Shown here piece by piece: positions 1,501 to 13,325 of a stretch of DNA of 13,325 bases. The DNA is from Acidobacteriota bacterium. Lineage in GTDB: Bacteria > Acidobacteriota > UBA6911 > JACQSX01. Where the stretch lies: contig DASXQR010000231.1 in the NCBI GenBank assembly GCA_036507075.1, forward strand, positions 1-13,325. The letters run 5' to 3'. A program made the translations under genes and the position numbers. Under the pieces are notes generated by a model. It was not told the origin of the DNA. It saw nothing but the letters and a program-made list of their open reading frames with translations, and ran no database searches. Positions within the stretch are counted from its first letter, which is position 1. Every line of letters begins with the position of its first letter.

Positions 1501-1658
1501 TTTCTACCACAAAGACACAAAAGACACGAAGTTGGACGTGGGGCAGGCAGAGACCGGCCAGCTTTGACGACCCGCTGGCGCCTCTCGCCGTGTGGAGCTG
1601 GCCGGTCTCTGCCTGCCCCACGTCTTGCTTTGTGTTCCTTGTGTCTTTGTGGTAGAAA
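1501..1658. repeat. 158-bp palindromic element (63-bp inverted arms, 32-nt loop) with 9-mer CACRAAGRV-type termini; MITE/REPIN-like
   Basis: 1501-1520 pairs perfectly with 1639-1658 (20 bp). 1535-1563 pairs perfectly with 1596-1624 (29 bp). The 14 nt between are partly matched. Starts 2 nt after the larA stop. Confidence 0.93.
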
Positions 1659-2246: not shown

Positions 2247-3983
2247 ATGACACGGCGTCTGATTCTGTTCCTGCTCCTGACGGCGACATGCCTGCAATCC
2301 CGCCTGCTGGCCCGCTCCCTTGTGATCGAGAGCTTCGAATGCGAGATACGCGTCAACACGGATGCCACCCTGGATGTGCTGGAAACGATCCGTCCAAAAT
2401 TTAGCGGGGCCTGGAATGGGATTTATCGAACGATCCCGCTGGAGTACCGCACGCCGCAGGGCTTCAATTACACGCTGCTTCTGGACTTAGAAGGCATCAC
2501 CGACGAAAACAACCGGCAATTGAAATATGAAAGCAGTCGCAGCGGGGCGTACCGCAAATTTAAGATCTGGGTACCGGGAGCAGTCGACACCACCCGCACC
2601 GTGCGCATCCATTATCGAGTGCTGAATGGACTGAGATTCTTTGATCAGCCGGACGAAACCTTTTCCGAGAAGCACGATGAGCTTTACTGGAATATTACCG
2701 GAAATGAATGGGAGATCCCGATAGAGAGCGCTTCAGCGCGCATTTACCTTCCGCCGGGGACCTCCGGGCTGCGGGCGCTCGCGTTTATCGGAGTCTCGGG
2801 CTCGCGCGAACAGGTCTCCGATATTGAGTTGGGACAGGATTACGTCCAAGTGCGATGCCCAAGAAAGCTCGAACCGGGCGAAGGGCTCACAGCGGCGATT
2901 GGCTGGAAATCAGGCATCGTGCACCGTCCCGGGGCTGTTGCGCAGGCAGGACTTTTCCTCCGGAGCAATATCATCTTCATCATTCCTCTGCTGGTGTTTC
3001 CACTGATGTGGCGGCACTGGTACCGCCGCGGGCGGGATCCGCGACTCCGTCCCATCGCGGCCACCTATGAACCACCCGGCAATCTGACGCCCGCCGAGCT
3101 CGGAACGCTGGTCGACAATCGTCCTGATATACGCGACATTACCGCCAGCATCGTGGATCTCGCGGTGCGCGGCTATATCCTGATCGAAGAAAGCAAACAG
3201 GAGCAGTTTTTCGGGCTCTTTTCAAAATCGGAATACACCTTCCATCGGAGGAAGCCCGCTTCGGATTGGTCGCAGCTCTTGCCTCACGAGCAGAAACTGC
3301 TGGAGGGACTGTTCCAGGGACGTGAAACCGTCATGCTCTCGGAATTGCAGAACAAGTTTTACAAGGAGCTTTCCGGCATTAAAGACAGGATTTACGATCA
3401 GTTGGTCGCACGGCGTTTCTATCTGCGAAGGCCTGATCGGGTGAAGGTCATATACGTGGCGGCTGGAATCGCGATCGGTTTTCTGGTGGGATTTGTCGGA
3501 GCCGCCATCAACAGTGCCCTGGGCGCGGGAGCGAGCAGCGCCGTGGTCGCAGGGCTGCTCACTGGCGGGATCATAGTGGCTTTTGCCTTCTTCATGCCGG
3601 CCCGCACGGCTGAAGGCGCCCGCGCACTGGAAGGTGTGCTGGGATTCGAGGAATTCCTGACGCGCGTGGAGTCGGATCGCTTCGAGCGCGTGATCAAGAC
3701 GCCGCAGATGTTCGAAAAATACCTTCCATTCGCCATGGCGCTGGGCGTGGAGAAGAACTGGGCGGGCGCCTTCCGTGATATTTACCGCCAGCCTCCGGAG
3801 TGGTATCGCGGCGCCGGCTACCACACCTTCCAGCCGAGTATCTTTGCAAGCGACCTGAGCCGCATGTCGACACAGGCGGCCTCTGCCATGAGTTCCGCCC
3901 CGCGAAGTTCGGGCAGCTCGGGTTTCGGCGGCGGAGGGAGCAGCGGCGGCGGTTTCGGCGGCGGCGGCGGCGGCGGTTTTTAG
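2247..3983 (+). CDS. DUF2207 family membrane protein, 578 aa
   Basis: Signal peptide, GIYRTIP and DELYWNITGNEW extracellular domain, LTPAELGTLVD, ASIVDLAVRGYI, several TM segments, FEKYLPFAMALGVEKNW, and a GGGSSGGGFGGGGGGGF tail. Lies 12 nt after lemA, a common pairing. Confidence 0.92.
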   Translation: MTRRLILFLLLTATCLQSRLLARSLVIESFECEIRVNTDATLDVLETIRPKFSGAWNGIYRTIPLEYRTPQGFNYTLLLDLEGITDENNRQLKYESSRSGAYRKFKIWVPGAVDTTRTVRIHYRVLNGLRFFDQPDETFSEKHDELYWNITGNEWEIPIESASARIYLPPGTSGLRALAFIGVSGSREQVSDIELGQDYVQVRCPRKLEPGEGLTAAIGWKSGIVHRPGAVAQAGLFLRSNIIFIIPLLVFPLMWRHWYRRGRDPRLRPIAATYEPPGNLTPAELGTLVDNRPDIRDITASIVDLAVRGYILIEESKQEQFFGLFSKSEYTFHRRKPASDWSQLLPHEQKLLEGLFQGRETVMLSELQNKFYKELSGIKDRIYDQLVARRFYLRRPDRVKVIYVAAGIAIGFLVGFVGAAINSALGAGASSAVVAGLLTGGIIVAFAFFMPARTAEGARALEGVLGFEEFLTRVESDRFERVIKTPQMFEKYLPFAMALGVEKNWAGAFRDIYRQPPEWYRGAGYHTFQPSIFASDLSRMSTQAASAMSSAPRSSGSSGFGGGGSSGGGFGGGGGGGF

Positions 3984-4036
3984 AGAGTGGGAGAGCGGGG
4001 GAGTGGGAGAGTGGGGGGACTGGGAGAGTGGGGAGT
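3982..4036 (+). repeat. Left arm: 8-mer array GGRGAGYG x~7
   Basis: agagagtg ggagagcg ggggagtg ggagagtg gggggactg ggagagtg gggagt. First unit overlaps the DUF2207 TAG, and the array ends 1 nt from the four-helix-bundle stop codon. Confidence 0.93.
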
Positions 4037-4037
4037 T

Positions 4038-4446
4038 TCAGGACCTACTGAGGGCCCAATCTTGGGGACGAATTGCCATTCTTACCAGTTTGCCCAGAAT
4101 TAGGTCATAGGTGCTGTATAGGTCGCGGCCTACGAAGAGATCAACATAGCCGCATTTGACTGCAAACTCTATCCAAACCTGAGTTTCTGCAGCCTCTCCT
4201 TCAGCGTCGGAAATCTTGCTGACGAAGGCCTTGGCGTAGCGCCGTTTCCTCCAACCCTCAGAAGTTATTGGAACACACGGACCGCGATGCTTTCCGAATC
4301 TGTGCTGTCAATGAAAACCGTTCCTCAGTGGGAAATGACTTCGACAACTCGAAAATTCTCATCGCGCATTCGAAAGCCTTCTTGTACACCTCAAGATCCC
4401 GATGACTCTTGATGTTTTGTCTCTTACGCTTCTCCATACCAAACAT
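4038..4446 (-). pseudogene. Four helix bundle protein (TIGR02436 / 23S rRNA IVS protein / Avd-like family), split by a 1-nt frameshift near 4260-4266
   Basis: First frame: (MFG)MEKRKRQNIKSHRDLEVYKKAFECAMRIFELSKSFPTEERFSLTAQIRKASRSVCSN. The +1 frame, translated by hand, continues (TS)EGWRKRRYAKAFVSKISDAEGEAAETQVWIEFAVKCGYVDLFVGRDLYSTYDLILGKLVRMAIRPQDWALSRS* with TGA at 4040-4038. This matches family motifs DLxVY, FPxEExFxLxxQxRxxSxS, NxxEG, ExxETxxW. Start is 4446 or 4437. Confidence 0.9.
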
Positions 4447-4507
4447 AACTGTGCTATTTCAAAATCCACGAACATTTTTTTCATTTTTACACTTTATCCC
4501 CGCAAAA

Positions 4508-4618
4508 TCTCCCACTCCCCCACTCCCCCGCTCTCCAACTTCCCCGCTCTCCCGCTCTCCCACTCCCCCACTCCCCCACTCCCCCGCTCCCCCGCTCCCC
4601 CGCTCCCCCGCTCTCCCC
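4508..4618 (+). repeat. Right arm: 8-mer array CTCYCCCR x~14, reverse complement of 3982-4036
   Basis: ctccccca ctcccccg ctctccaa cttccccg ctctcccg ctctccca ctccccca x2 ctcccccg x4 ctctcccc. Confidence 0.95.
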
Positions 4619-4665
4619 AGTTGCCCCGGCTTGCGTTATGATCAGAACAATACAAGGAGAGCGGA

Positions 4666-6099
4666 ATGCAGATTCGCAGAACTGAATTTCTAACGCGCGC
4701 ATCAATGGGACTCCTCCTTCTGACCCTGATTCTGGGTCAGGGCCATAGCGGGCCGCGCGCGCACCGCAACCAGACGGCACTGGACAGGTATGTTTTCAGG
4801 CCGGATCCGGAATATGGATACAAGGTGATTAACACCATAAAAGGCGAAGGTTACACCGTCTTCGTCCTTCAGATGACCTCACAACAGTGGCGCAGCGAGG
4901 CTGAAGTGGATCACCCGATATGGCAGCACTGGCTGACGATCATAAAACCGGACCAGGTCGAAACATCGACCGGTTTCCTTTTCATCAACGGAGGTTCGAT
5001 CACCAGCAAAGCGCCCGGGTCGGCAGATCCGGCCTTCATCGGGATGGCCATGAACACGCATTCGGTCACTGCGGATTTGCGGGGCGTTCCGAACGAGCCT
5101 CTGGTTTTTAAGGAAGAGGGAAAAGTTCGAAGCGAAGACGCAATCATCGCCTATTCATGGGTGAAGTTTTTGAAGACAGGTGATGAGAATTGGCCCCTTC
5201 GTCTCCCCATGACCAAGAGCGCGGTTCGCGCGCTTGACACGGTTACCGCGTTCTGCGGCTCTCCTGAGCAGGGCGGCGTGAAAGTGAATCGATTCGTAGT
5301 GGCAGGCGGATCCAAGCGCGGATGGACAACCTGGACGACTGCAGCAGTCGACGACCGTGTGGTCGCCATTGTGCCGTTTGTAATAGATGTTTTGAACAAC
5401 GAGAAATCAATGGATCATCATTACCGCGCGTACGGATTTTGGGCCCCGGCGATCGGAGATTACACGGAGATGCATTTAATCGACTGGGCCGGAACGCCCC
5501 GGTATAAAGCGCTGATGAAGATAGAGGATCCCTACTCGTACCGCGACCGGCTGACGATGCCCAAATTCATCGTGAATTCCACCGGCGATCAGTATTTTCT
5601 GCCGGATTCTTCGCAGTTCTACTACGAAGACTTGAAGGGCGAAAAGTACCTTCGTTATGTACCCAACACCAAACACAACCTGTCCAATTCTGACGCCCGG
5701 GAAAGCATGGTGGCTTTTTACGAATCGGTGATCAAGGGAACTTCGCGACCCAGATTCTCCTGGAAGTTCGAAAAGGACGGAGCGATCGTCGTTGAGATGA
5801 AGGACAAACCCTCGGAAGTAAAGCTGTGGCAGGCTACGAATCCGAAAGCTCGCGATTTCCGACTGGACACCATAGGCCCCGCCTACAAGAGTTCGGTTCT
5901 GGACCCGGCTAAAGAGGGTGTTTACGTTGGACGCGTGCCGGATCCAACACAGGGGTGGACAGCGTATTTTGTTGAGCTGACGTACCCCAGCGGTGGAAAG
6001 TATCCATTCAAATTTACCACCGAGGTCCGCGTGACCCCGGACACGCTTCCGTTTCCGTCACCCAAGAAGGATTTATCCGCGGCGGTGCCGGCACTCTGA
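4666..6099 (+). CDS. PhoPQ-activated pathogenicity-related (PqaA) family secreted alpha/beta hydrolase, 477 aa
   Basis: SD AAGGAG upstream and an N-terminal hydrophobic signal. MTSQQW, WQHWL, VPNEPL, EDAIIAYSW, LPMTKSAVRALD, nucleophile elbow GGSKRGWTTW, GDQYFLPD, YVPNTKH. Confidence 0.88.
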   Translation: MQIRRTEFLTRASMGLLLLTLILGQGHSGPRAHRNQTALDRYVFRPDPEYGYKVINTIKGEGYTVFVLQMTSQQWRSEAEVDHPIWQHWLTIIKPDQVETSTGFLFINGGSITSKAPGSADPAFIGMAMNTHSVTADLRGVPNEPLVFKEEGKVRSEDAIIAYSWVKFLKTGDENWPLRLPMTKSAVRALDTVTAFCGSPEQGGVKVNRFVVAGGSKRGWTTWTTAAVDDRVVAIVPFVIDVLNNEKSMDHHYRAYGFWAPAIGDYTEMHLIDWAGTPRYKALMKIEDPYSYRDRLTMPKFIVNSTGDQYFLPDSSQFYYEDLKGEKYLRYVPNTKHNLSNSDARESMVAFYESVIKGTSRPRFSWKFEKDGAIVVEMKDKPSEVKLWQATNPKARDFRLDTIGPAYKSSVLDPAKEGVYVGRVPDPTQGWTAYFVELTYPSGGKYPFKFTTEVRVTPDTLPFPSPKKDLSAAVPAL

Positions 6100-7818: not shown

Positions 7819-8012
7819 AAGGATGGAGGGATGGAGGGATGGAGGGACTTAGGAAGAGAGAGGCACGCAACAATTGGAGGAATTATTCCCGTCCTCGATC
7901 TCTCTCAATCCTTCAATCCTCCATAGTCCCAATCCCTCCGTCCCTCATTCCCTCCATCCCTCCATCCCTCCATCCCTCCATCCCTCCATCCCTCCATCCC
8001 TCAGTCCCTCAA
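7819..8012. repeat. Inverted pair of 8-mer arrays (AGGGATGG x~4; TCCCTCCA-type x~13) between convergent genes, no gene between
   Basis: 7819-7850: aaggatgg agggatgg agggatgg agggactt. 7901-8012 includes six perfect TCCCTCCA at 7949-7996. Same unit as the element at 1-164. Confidence 0.95.
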
Positions 8013-10270
8013 TTCTGTGCCACCGGCATGGTCGCGAACTGGCGTGGGCGCGTCTGGATCACCGTGGCTGCAACACGACCGTTTGTCCTTATCTTCACAA
8101 CAGCCAGCAGATTAGAAAAGTTGACGGGCTGGTTCCACCTCAGCTGCCCGACGAACTTGGCTGAGTGACCGCCGGGCCTGATGGCATCGTCGCCGTCGAT
8201 TTTCGCTGTCGCCAACAGCCTGCCATCGAGGTCGTACAGCTCGACGTCGGCTGTAACGTTGCTGCTCTCTTCAAGGCTCATCAAAGCGATGCCGGTGTCG
8301 GTTCCCAGGGCGGTGTTGGTCTCGATCGGGGCGGAAAATCCGCTTAATAAACCGGCGCTCGACCCGACGCCTGCGACGCCGAAATCTCCGCCGAAGATAA
8401 TCACGCCGGCGATCGGCCGCACAGCGCTCACGGCGACAGAACCGCCGCGCAGAGGACCGTTGCCGCTCGTCTTGAGGATGCGGAGACCGCCCGCCGGAAT
8501 AATGAGCGTCTTCGTTCCGTTCACGGTTTCACCATTCAAATCGACCGTCATCAGCGCGCCGGTGTCATCGCGGACCGTCAGCGTGACTTCGGTCTCAAGA
8601 GCGGTCATGGTGAGAAGCATGATCTCGCTCGTGATTCTCTGCGTGCCGGTGACAATCCCCGTTCCGAAATGCGCAAAATTGAGTCGCGTGTTGGAAGCAT
8701 CGCCCGTAAGCGGCACGACGGGAAGTGTCGCGTATTCGCTCGGCGTAACCTGCACGACGGTGCCTGCAACTCTGCCGTTTGTGGTAACCCGCAGGACCGC
8801 CTGCAGGTTGGAGAAGTTCAGCGCCGGTGTCCAGGGCAGTTGCGACAGGAACAATGCCCTGTGGCCTCCTGCAGCAATGGCGTTAGCGCCGTCGAGCCGC
8901 GCGGTCGCAAACTGCCGGCCGTCTGTGTCGGCCAGTTGGAATGTTGCGGTTAATGCGTTCGTTTCAAGATTCATAACCGCGATTCCCATATCCGTGCCCG
9001 TGGCGCTGTTGGTTTCCATGGGCGCGACAAAACCACCGCTCATGGGAAGGCTGTTGCCCACTCCTGCCAGGCCGAAGCTCCCGCCAAAGAGAATCACACC
9101 CGCCAGCGCGTTGTCGGAGCTTACGGTGGCCGACCCCGCCGTGAGCGGCCCCTGACCGTCTGTCTTCAACACCCGCATCCCTCCTGGCGGGATCGTGAGC
9201 GCCCTGTTTCCAACGACAGGCTCACCGTTCAGCCTGGTGGTCAAATTCCGCCCCAGATCGTCGCGGAGCGACATGGTGGCGTTGGTCACCACGGTGGACT
9301 GATTCAGCAACATTGCCTGGCTGAAGACTTCAAACGTGGTCCCCACTTTGCCGTTGCCGAATTGAGCAAAGTAGAGCTTGAAATTACCGCCCAGTGTGGC
9401 GATCTTTCCCGCAGTAGCAACAACACCGGGGCCGGCAAGGAGGTCGGAATCGGGAAACCCATCATGGTCAAAATCAAAGGCCATCGTATCCGGGGTTCCA
9501 TCGAGATCGGTGTCGCCCATGGGAATGAAAATTTGCGGGACCTTGTTTTTGGCTTGAACGCCGAGCACGGACGAAAGAGCCCAGGGAATGGTCGCAAAGT
9601 CCGCCTTGCCGTCATTGTTGATGTCCACGCCGACAAAATTGATCGTGGTAGCGGGCAGAGTGGTAAAATTATCCTTTCCTTCAATTCTAAATGCTTCGTA
9701 AATACCGTTGTTATCTCCATCGATCATGTTCAGCGTGTAGACAGCCGGAAGATTGTGCGTGAAGCGCACCTTGCCCGGGGGGACATAGGGAGTGGAGCCG
9801 GCCGCGTCGGTGATGCGGAGTGTTCTAGGCCTGCCGTTTGCGTCGAAATTGGAAAACTCCGCAGCGATGGTTTGGGTTCCGAACTGGCTCGTGAAGCGGA
9901 CCGTTCCCGTCAGAAACCTGAGGCTTCCGGGCTGCGGATTTGAAAGGGCAGCCGTTGTTTGGCCCGGAAAAAGCGGCCGATACTTGGTGCTGACGAGCGA
10001 GAGGTTGTTTGAGCTTCGGCTGGCGTCGATGGGTTCATCGGCCGAGTCGGGCATTCCATTTCCGTTTGTGTCGGCTCTCGCCATGCTTGTCCAGGGATCG
10101 GCAGTGGGCGGAAGAAATGCTCCCGAACCGGACGTCTGCTGGCGGTCGAAATTCGAAGGCCCCCTTTTGACTGCTTCCGTGCTGGTCAGGGAAACGCTCA
10201 CGACCAGCAGAACGAATATCGCAATCAGGATCCATCTTTCTTCTCTCAGACCGGGATGCTTCAAATTCAT
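8009..10270 (-). CDS. Secreted hypothetical protein, 753 aa, with DxDxDG-type Ca-binding motifs and two tandem ~225-aa beta-rich domains
   Basis: SD GGAGGAG upstream (ctcctcc near 10278-10284 on +). N-terminal hydrophobic segment. Motifs DTNGNGMPD, DGDNNGIYE, DINNDGKAD, DTDLDGTPD, DFDHDGFPD. Duplicated units KLYFAQFGNG...YATLPV and RLNFAHFGTG...FATMPV. Confidence 0.88.
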   Translation of the reverse strand: MNLKHPGLREERWILIAIFVLLVVSVSLTSTEAVKRGPSNFDRQQTSGSGAFLPPTADPWTSMARADTNGNGMPDSADEPIDASRSSNNLSLVSTKYRPLFPGQTTAALSNPQPGSLRFLTGTVRFTSQFGTQTIAAEFSNFDANGRPRTLRITDAAGSTPYVPPGKVRFTHNLPAVYTLNMIDGDNNGIYEAFRIEGKDNFTTLPATTINFVGVDINNDGKADFATIPWALSSVLGVQAKNKVPQIFIPMGDTDLDGTPDTMAFDFDHDGFPDSDLLAGPGVVATAGKIATLGGNFKLYFAQFGNGKVGTTFEVFSQAMLLNQSTVVTNATMSLRDDLGRNLTTRLNGEPVVGNRALTIPPGGMRVLKTDGQGPLTAGSATVSSDNALAGVILFGGSFGLAGVGNSLPMSGGFVAPMETNSATGTDMGIAVMNLETNALTATFQLADTDGRQFATARLDGANAIAAGGHRALFLSQLPWTPALNFSNLQAVLRVTTNGRVAGTVVQVTPSEYATLPVVPLTGDASNTRLNFAHFGTGIVTGTQRITSEIMLLTMTALETEVTLTVRDDTGALMTVDLNGETVNGTKTLIIPAGGLRILKTSGNGPLRGGSVAVSAVRPIAGVIIFGGDFGVAGVGSSAGLLSGFSAPIETNTALGTDTGIALMSLEESSNVTADVELYDLDGRLLATAKIDGDDAIRPGGHSAKFVGQLRWNQPVNFSNLLAVVKIRTNGRVAATVIQTRPRQFATMPVAQN

Positions 10271-10443: not shown

Positions 10444-10507
10444 TTTCCACCACAAAGGCACAAAGAGCACGAAGCAAGATGCGGGGGCAGGCAGAGGTCG
10501 GTCAGGT
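10444..10507 (+). repeat. Solo diverged arm of the 1501-1658 palindromic element
   Basis: tttccaccacaaaggcacaaagagcacgaagcaagatgcgggggcaggcagaggtcggtcaggt aligns to the reverse complement of 1596-1658 with about 11 substitutions and 1 indel by hand count. Confidence 0.88.
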
Positions 10508-10547
10508 GCCCAACGGTGAACGCGCCAAAGGGTTTGAAAGGTGAGGT

Positions 10548-12210: not shown

Positions 12211-12226
12211 TATAATCACCTCGATG
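12211..12226 (+). promoter_or_regulatory. Candidate -10 box for a leaderless transcript
   Basis: Perfect TATAAT at 12211-12216, 7 nt before ATG 12224. No SD and no well-spaced -35. Confidence 0.45.
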
Positions 12227-13036
12227 CGTCGTGCCGACCTGCTTGCCATGCTGGTTTTATTACTCCTTGCAAGCCTGTCTGTGTTGCGTTGGGCCCCGCA
12301 GAGGATGGGCACACTGGCCGATTACGCACCGCAGGGTCCTGTTTTCTATTTTGAAATAGCGCCAAGATCGATGTTTCTCGGGAATGCGGAAAAACTGGCG
12401 AATTTTGGGCAGGACCAACAGTGGCTTGCAAACGCCCTGGCCAAGATGCCGACCGGGGAGCGTCCCAGGGTTCAAAAGCTGCTCTCTGATCAATCTACCC
12501 GCATTGCTCTGAGCATATCCGATCTTCACGCTGCGCCAGCGGGCGCCACAAAGCTGGAATTTCTGCTGCTGGCGCAAACCTCCCGGGAGCACTTCTCCGA
12601 TCTGGCTTTGGTTGGCGACCGATGGCTGCGTGCCGCGCTTCCACCAGGGCATGCAGTTGAGATGCAATCCCGGCCGCGGCTGGGCGCGCTGGTCGGCGAG
12701 CCGCCAAAGAGACTTTACTATTATGAGGATTTCCCGCTGTATGCTGTATCCAACAGCCCTGGCCTGATTTCCTTGTTGCTTGAGATTCGCTATCGGAACC
12801 TTCCTTCCCTCGCGGCACAGAGGGAATTTCGGAATACCCGGCAGGCGCTCGCCAGCGCCGGCGGGGCCGTGCTGTACGTGAACCTGCGCCGTCTTACACC
12901 GGCGCGCTCGAACGTATTTCTAAGTCCTTTTATGATTCTGCAGGCTTTGAACATCACCGATTGGGCCACGCTCGCCTACGGTTGGGACGATGTGCGCGGC
13001 GAAATAGTACGCAGGACCATCCTGATCAGGCGTTAG
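12224..13036 (+). CDS. Hypothetical exported or membrane-anchored protein, 270 aa (weak DUF3352-like resemblance)
   Basis: Longest ORF in the gap, with an N-terminal MRR + hydrophobic segment. The C-terminal VSNS...SLA...F...LYVNL pattern is only reminiscent of DUF3352. Confidence 0.7.
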   Translation: MRRADLLAMLVLLLLASLSVLRWAPQRMGTLADYAPQGPVFYFEIAPRSMFLGNAEKLANFGQDQQWLANALAKMPTGERPRVQKLLSDQSTRIALSISDLHAAPAGATKLEFLLLAQTSREHFSDLALVGDRWLRAALPPGHAVEMQSRPRLGALVGEPPKRLYYYEDFPLYAVSNSPGLISLLLEIRYRNLPSLAAQREFRNTRQALASAGGAVLYVNLRRLTPARSNVFLSPFMILQALNITDWATLAYGWDDVRGEIVRRTILIRR

Positions 13037-13091: not shown

Positions 13092-13237
13092 GTCATTGGT
13101 CATTAGTCATCAGTCATTAAGTGCAGTGCGAAAGTTCAGGAGCTTCGTGCCTCGGGACTGAAAAAATTGAACCACCAAGACACCAAGCCAGGTTTCCACA
13201 ATGACCAATGACCAATGACCAATGACCAATGACCAAT
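13092..13237. repeat. Inverted pair of 7-mer arrays (GTCATTR x4; CAATGAC x5.5)
   Basis: 13092-13119: gtcattg gtcatta gtcatca gtcatta. 13199-13237: caatgac x5 + caat. 79-nt spacer. Confidence 0.95.
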
Positions 13238-13325
13238 AGGGGTATTTACTTGACTCCACCACGTACTACAGGTTGTGGTTTGATCAGAGTTGAAAATGGA
13301 GCTGGCTCGACCTGCACGGCCTGCT

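Follow-up and report, generated by a model that had tools for sequence, protein, structure and literature searches.

A small gene enclosed by inverted arrays of an eight-nucleotide word lies between two host genes of an uncultured Acidobacteriota bacterium, and the locus raises the question of what kind of element it belongs to. The window analyzed here is the whole contig that carries it (C231; 13,325 nucleotides), one of 233 contigs in a 6.1-Mb genome (G000). The initial annotation of the window had presented the locus as the 'full' cassette of a mobile or excisable unit built around a gene of the four-helix-bundle family PF05635/TIGR02436. The window contains a broken member of an undescribed, widespread family of REPtron-like cassettes with a testable link to competence through a putative promoter shared with DNA-uptake genes. 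The observed part of this description comprises the cassette layout, the linkage of repeat word to protein clade, the fixed polarity of the words, deleted sisters, broken copies, site turnover and the shared promoter motif. No function is known for PF05635, a very common family, and tandem arrays make up about 2% of G000.

The window gene is frameshifted between inverted tandem arms

Tandem Repeats Finder (TRF) recovers both arms of the cassette (Table 1), with 6.8 copies of the word on the left and 13.5 copies on the right (4511-4619, period 8, 85% matches, CCCACTCC). Over 51-54 nt, the arms have a complementarity of 74-78%, and the gene between them runs antisense to the host operon. On the left, the array starts at the stop codon of the DUF2207 gene (TAG 3981-3983) and ends 1 nt short of the stop codon of the cassette gene (TGA 4040-4038). 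The GC content of 4081-4440 is 0.489 (counted by hand as about 49% in the initial annotation), whereas the 3' end of DUF2207 has 0.64 and the genome as a whole 0.561. The 651-nt cassette stretch folds on both strands (z = -4.5 for the minus strand and -4.3 for the plus strand), none of 20 shuffles was as stable, and the arm duplex energies of the two strands are almost equal. The inverted 8-mer arms around an antisense gene, the reach of the left arm from one stop codon to the other, the low GC content and the position of the gene as the loop of a potential large hairpin were all described correctly at the outset.

The designation as a 'full' cassette is not supported. Both halves of the gene match PF05635, the N-terminal half at 3.8e-14 (53.2 bits; cut-off 33.8) and the C-terminal half at 1.6e-07 (31.9 bits). 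Reading from the ATG at 4437, however, ends after 59 codons at TGA 4260-4258, and the remainder lies in the +1 frame. An alignment of the family (A1, from which 2 loci were left out) places the break inside the conserved R-x3-S-x3-N-x2-E motif; an R-S-N-E motif of PF05635 is described in a passage of PMC3936711. The frame is open across the break point in 77 of the 78 scored relatives of the window clade. No near-identical intact protein was found among 65 matches, the best of which reached 72%. Because its gene is frameshifted, the window copy reads as a decayed cassette rather than a full one, and the frameshift is either biological decay or an assembly error. Decay is common in G000, since three of its seven PF05635 loci and two of its six GxxExxY loci are broken; one further PF05635 copy is deleted.

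Repeat words follow protein clades

Flanking words were scored at loci of the window clade and of its sister clade after loci with short flanks had been dropped (20 of 98 and 4 of 80, respectively). Inverted words bracket the gene in 66 of the 78 window-clade loci, with direct words in 15 and inverted words in 12/52 of a shifted control. The sister clade has inverted words in 68 of 76 loci and direct words in 11, against 7/63 in the shifted control. A set of 29 relatives from the same class has inverted words in 22 cases and direct words in 5. The word also tracks the protein. On a FastTree phylogeny of 205 proteins, which excluded loci fetched twice, with stops, or shorter than 70 aa, the repeat period changes 21 times, compared to a mean of 76 and a minimum of 68 in 200 shuffles. 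The arrays are octameric in 70 of 73 members of the window clade, and a GCAG/GCGG core is present in 67 of 70 members of the sister clade, which extends over six phyla. The linkage between word and clade persists at 50-70% protein identity. Two expectations raised by the initial annotation, enrichment of inverted arrays around other four-helix-bundle genes and a repeat unit that tracks with the clade, are borne out by these counts.

Individual genomes carry several divergent PF05635 clades at non-syntenic sites, and 16 of 61 genomes of the class have no match. The tRNA-Sec/dprA junction (L356-L382) is a hot spot where turnover occurs at one site: 6 of 20 loci have a gene with arms, and others have arms alone, with other words. 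The right arm at this junction ends at the dprA start codon, and no obvious ribosome-binding site is seen. No orthologous DUF2207-pqaA junction, and hence no empty site, turned up among 60 relatives. Matches to pqaA were obtained in 8 and to DUF2207 in 12 of 61 genomes. The closest pqaA locus, in G001, has a different upstream gene and no arm. Six DUF2207 loci were examined and three were read; two have a different heptamer arm after the stop codon and another downstream gene, and one is armless. In the DUF2207 homologues of G001 and G003 (L014 and L015), the partner of the heptamer arm lies in frame within the N-terminus of the next gene.

Outside the G000 lineage, the upstream host gene is co-oriented with the cassette gene in 67 of 69 loci, and the cassette sits behind the host stop codon. 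These cassettes would rely on host read-through, because most of them lack a promoter of the G000 type and directly follow the co-oriented host gene.

Arm pairs without a gene populate the genome

G000 contains 2647 tandem arrays with a score of at least 40, which cover 2.1% of the genome length. Where neighboring arrays are separated by less than 200 nt (846 cases), 452 pairs have the inverted and 15 the direct orientation, compared to 2.5% inverted among random pairs. The polarity of each word is fixed (114:0, 21:0, 20:0 and 19:0). Arrays lie no more than 450 nt from each of the seven PF05635 loci, with differing words, and four of the six GxxExxY loci have arrays scored by TRF; short repeats are visible by eye at the other two. 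The word of some cassette in G000 is matched by 1253 of the 2647 arrays, and the biggest unmatched words, AATGCGG and AAAGTCG, build the arms of cassettes from other PF05635 clades in G001 and G003. There are 462 inverted pairs without a gene, and 135 of them abut a stop codon, compared to 541 of 5470 random placements. The window itself holds four more such pairs. Families of repeats are also nested in G000, with palindromes like those of repetitive extragenic palindromic (REP) elements and other arm pairs inside the spacers of tandem-arm pairs.

Two sister copies lie at other loci. The one at C82:21195-21521 is related to the window cassette but has an internal deletion; it has the same word and is 87% identical across 122 nt that comprise the promoter and the start of the gene. 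A fragment on C17 is 81% identical to the four-helix-bundle cassette on C225. Of the proposed mobile or excisable unit, the recurrence of a repeat-armed unit at unrelated places is supported by the deleted sister and by the arms around relatives; excision as RNA, in the manner of an rRNA intervening sequence (IVS), fits the window copy poorly, as discussed below. Target-site duplications like those of MITEs and classical insertion sequences are not in excess: direct repeats of at least 5 nt were found at the edges of 52 of 456 elements versus approximately 63 in shuffled pairings. This lack of excess agrees with the absence of a clear target-site duplication noted for the window, although short duplications could be missed because the element edges are fuzzy.

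A putative promoter shared with DNA-uptake genes lies inside the arms

A promoter-like element that went unnoticed in the earlier reading lies inside the cassette arms at 4481-4443. A scoring matrix was trained on eight host genes (recA, dprA, ssb, comM, comF, comEA, a pilin and radC). The matrix finds 56 sites of at least 20 bits in the genome and 2 in the reversed genome. NCBIfam analysis of 39 proteins encoded behind the motif confirms all eight training genes, the pilin being ComGD-like. It also places comEC, recG, recQ, a Hef/ERCC4 nuclease, an AddA-like fragment, 6 IS200-like transposases and 4 transposases resembling the REP-associated tyrosine transposases (RAYTs) behind the motif. Scores of at least 18 occur upstream of 5/7 PF05635 loci, 5/6 GxxExxY loci and 8/12 loci of the Y1 transposase family, compared to 23 of 4195 crude genes. 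The Y1/RAYT genes of G000 have an arm-promoter-gene-arm build too, with palindromic REPs as arms. The -10 box ends 5 nt before the ATG of the window gene (ATG 4437) and of dprA, comM, comF, radC and the pilin gene, and this short distance suggests leaderless starts.

The same promoter is present in G001 and G003, two genomes of a sister genus in the same family. It precedes 6 of 9 cassettes in G001 (of 12 matches) and 8 of 9 in G003 (of 10 matches), and these belong to several protein clades with different words. The exact promoter pattern occurs 43 times in G001 and 36 times in G003, with 0 occurrences in the control. Of the 43 sites in G001, 36 were fetched and 35 scanned; the genes behind them include recA, a comEA-like HHH_3 gene, radC, a pilin gene, comM, 1 GxxExxY gene and 15 Y1 genes, and 14 have no family. 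One instance of 30 nt recurs identically about 10 times in G003, and the one scanned copy precedes an IS200-like gene, which suggests a recently expanded element. Lookalike variants were seen, by eye only, before dprA and four-helix-bundle genes in G015, G051, G053 and G041. The repeat word is thus a property of the protein clade and the promoter one of the host lineage, since the promoter is not detected with the G000 matrix beyond the sister genus; several unrelated cassette clades share the motif of their host.

A search for the regulator found that none of 34 sigma-70 region-2 matches has a motif of at least 18 bits upstream, the best reaching 13.5. An ECF-like sigma gene of G000 (C17:70862-72093) has a motif of 29.2 bits at its 3' end, before an anti-sigma-like/TPR gene, and may be part of a regulator control loop. 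Six more genes of G000 stand behind strong motifs, have no NCBIfam family or were not scanned, and are candidates for unknown competence genes: C28:575-2407, C48:57222-58103, C87:5355-5624, C97:18644-19267, C192:97720-99135 and C83:143915-144433.

With this motif, an uncultured lineage gains a candidate competence promoter. The motif also makes the function of PF05635 testable, in terms of when the gene is on, what its product binds (the word of its clade, as single-stranded DNA or as RNA) and whether flanking arms give DNA an advantage in transformation. A passage of PMC5581495 cites Sinha 2009 for the induction of the Escherichia coli RAYT yafM with competence. The G000 regulon supports, in a distant phylum, this little-followed hint of competence-induced RAYT transposases.

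A model of the cassettes and its known counterparts

The layout that emerges is a tandem-word arm, a small gene and an inverted arm, with each protein clade apparently keeping its own word of 6-10 nt. Pairs of arms with cassette words and no gene would be the non-autonomous remains or products of such cassettes, analogous to REPINs. The Avd-fold protein would be made as an oligomer when a competence (or DNA-repair) sigma regulon is on and would bind its own word arrays on single-stranded DNA. Binding may favor the retention, recombination or copying of DNA between such arms during transformation. Cutting and joining would be left to co-expressed enzymes, such as RecA/DprA/ComM, HUH transposases or GxxExxY nucleases. 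A system of the REPtron/REPIN type that works on single-stranded DNA in competent cells and spreads with borrowed enzymes is our preferred reading, about as likely as not to be right.

RAYT-REP/REPIN systems are the closest counterpart. They share a gene between inverted, lineage-specific repeats, abundant gene-less inverted pairs between genes, and a link to competence. In contrast, the window protein is a four-helix bundle (PF05635) and not an HUH Y1 tyrosine transposase, the cassette arms are tandem 6-10-mers rather than palindromic REPs, and the gene-less pairs mostly have unique spacers. Cyanobacterial short tandemly repeated repetitive (STRR) sequences are heptamers dispersed as tandem repeats between genes. 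They are likened here by description only, as dispersed intergenic tandem 7-8-mers with some similar words, and our literature search found no link of STRR repeats to a gene cassette. The DNA uptake sequences (DUS) and uptake signal sequences (USS) of Neisseria and the Pasteurellaceae are short words that occur in thousands of copies, often as inverted pairs, and are tied to transformation. The cassette arrays, unlike DUS/USS, are tandem; their dialects are many, and each is associated with a small intracellular gene clade and not with one uptake receptor. DNA uptake sequences are mentioned in a section of PMC3686654. A search of the literature, with subscription journals outside its coverage, returned no description of tandem-armed PF05635 cassettes and no link of the family to competence or GxxExxY proteins.

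Several results weigh against the REPtron-like model. Physical linkage accounts for part of the linkage of word to clade, and members of the two big clades were collected through their similarity to two queries; since related loci have labels in common and the arms move together with the gene, the tree demonstrates long co-inheritance and not recognition. The training genes of the matrix were picked by eye from hits of a pattern derived first from the cassettes, and the two are not fully independent. The promoter precedes 1 of 20 cassettes in six other relatives of the class, 0 of 78 window-clade relatives and 4 of 76 sister-clade loci. Among 30 dprA genes of class relatives, 2 score at least 10 with the matrix built from G000 genes, and inspection by eye of 5 more distant hosts showed no motif that their cassettes share with comM/dprA. 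The regulon may be a DNA-damage regulon, as repair genes are also in it. The spacers of gene-less pairs are singletons in 230 of 345 cases, only 2 hold remnants of a cassette gene, and the two arms of one pair match each other little better than they match the arms of other copies. Simple copying of a master element is disfavored because the spacers are mostly singletons and the arms of one element are barely more alike. Finally, the protein has no known catalytic site, and its catalytic partner is postulated.

Alternative explanations

The cassettes might form a widespread class of selfish elements driven by transformation, an extension of the preferred reading that we advance tentatively as possible but less likely than not. 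A non-catalytic Avd-fold oligomer, expressed along with the competence regulon, would recognize its own tandem word on incoming single-stranded DNA, bias the survival or integration of that DNA and seed thousands of arrays in each genome. If this were true, PF05635 would gain a function, STRR-like repeats would be explained, and the four-helix-bundle, GxxExxY and RAYT cassettes would form one ecological class of competence parasites.

An element that moves at the RNA level, as the initial annotation had suggested by comparison with IVSs, is unlikely. The arms would pair in the host transcript, RNase III would excise the cassette, and the Avd-like protein would recruit a reverse transcriptase in trans for copying. 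According to a passage of PMC4990558, the family came to light in IVSs whose terminal stem is cleaved by RNase III. Both strands of the cassette stretch fold. The co-oriented upstream gene at nearly all loci outside the G000 lineage is also as expected for an element carried in a host transcript. The ORF-bearing IVSs of 23S rRNA (S23p; Coxiella and Leptospira) resemble the cassette in that a PF05635 protein is enclosed by a terminal stem, which is predicted in the window. They differ in that the cassette is outside an rRNA gene, is antisense to the host operon, has its own promoter inside the arms and has tandem-word arms. An Rfam scan of the window gave 0 matches, and the cassette lies between DUF2207 and pqaA with no 23S rRNA gene. 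The transcript from the window promoter would lack the 5' arm because the promoter is inside the arms. The gene is also antisense to the host operon. Excision by RNase III would therefore give no translatable element from the window copy, which IVS-like processing fits poorly. The complementarity of the arms, at 74-78%, and the lack of excess target-site duplications argue in the same direction. For cassettes elsewhere, the IVS/reverse transcriptase model is possible.

The structural relation to Avd, the accessory protein of diversity-generating retroelements, was examined with an intact paralog of the broken window copy (L067; TIGR02436, 1.5e-26). Its predicted structure is a four-helix bundle with a predicted local distance difference test (pLDDT) score of 92.9. 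The model resembles Avd (4DWL, template modeling (TM) score 0.74, Z 14.5; 8UB7, Z 15.2), which favors an RNA-level element and is consistent with the relatedness to the Avd fold that was stated for the family in the initial annotation. It is closer to XCC0516 (2GSC; TM 0.83, Z 18.8) and BT_0352 (2RLD; Z 15.8), and XCC0516 is a toroidal homopentamer in the account given in part of PMC4990558. The Avd model NF033474 scores 41.3 bits on L067, below the cut-off of 80, and no adjacent reverse transcriptase, template or variable repeat was seen. Reverse transcriptases and transposases are missing from the window, as first reported. The two reverse transcriptase matches in the genome (C146 and C119) look group-II-like by eye and adjoin no cassette, none lies beside any four-helix-bundle locus of G000, and 0 of the 12 Y1 matches of the genome fall in the window.

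Domestication is improbable as well. The protein would be a competence- or damage-induced accessory or defense protein of the host, and the arrays, serving incoming DNA as bait or landing sites, would spread only through slippage and ordinary recombination. A regulon common to core uptake and repair genes and the position of the gene directly before dprA in 6 loci are consistent with a host role. Family members inside cas loci are reported in a passage of PMC3936711, and a bait idea for RAYT/REPIN appears in a passage of PMC5581495. The broken and deleted loci of G000 (three of seven, and one more), the presence of several divergent clades in one genome at sites without synteny and the 16 class genomes with no match argue against it. 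Independent microsatellites or terminators grown by slippage in intergenic gaps, with an ordinary transferred gene between two of them by chance, would account for arrays over 2.1% of the genome and for the many pairs with no gene, but this passive reading is very improbable. The inverted excess among close neighbors, the fixed polarity and the inverted arms around relatives far above shifted controls speak against it, and a word that follows the protein across six phyla largely refutes it.

Other features of the window

Table 1 Features of the 13,325-nucleotide window
Feature	Position	Strand	Evidence
Left arm, tandem 8-mer array (GRGAGYGG)	3983..4036	+	TRF period 8, 6.8 copies, 77% matches, GAGAGTGG
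Four-helix-bundle (PF05635/TIGR02436) gene, frameshifted	4038..4437	-	N-part 4437-4261 to TGA 4260-4258; C-part 4259-4041, +1 frame, TGA 4040-4038
Candidate competence-regulon-type promoter: A-tract, -35 box, -10 box	4443..4481	-	28.2 bits, host-gene matrix
Right arm, reverse-complement 8-mer array (CCRCTCYC)	4508..4619	+	Inverted match to left arm
Host DUF2207 gene, upstream neighbor, follows lemA	2247..3983	+	PF09972 + PF20990
Host PqaA-type gene, downstream neighbor	4666..6099	+	PF10142
Gene-less inverted pair, related 8-mer word (AGGGATGG / TCCCTCCA), cut by contig start	1..167		TRF + inverted match
Gene-less inverted repeat, CACAAAGA-type words (family at G000 GxxExxY genes)	1501..1658		63-nt arms, 89% complementary
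Gene-less inverted pair, 8-mer family of 1-167	7821..8013		TRF + inverted match
Gene-less inverted pair, GTCATTG / CAATGAC heptamer (word of C225 four-helix-bundle cassette)	13092..13237		TRF

Two long open reading frames of the window have no Pfam match, one of 753 aa at 8009-10270 (-) and one of 270 aa at 12224-13036 (+). A lone arm of the 1501-1658 repeat family is present at 10444-10533, 77-86% identical and without a partner arm. The window ends at 13236-13325 with the end of a multicopy element, which has 7 identical matches of 89-90 nt, all at contig ends. Six of the seven copies directly follow arrays of the GTCATTG/CAATGAC family, and the sequence has the appearance of an insertion element with these arms as its targets.

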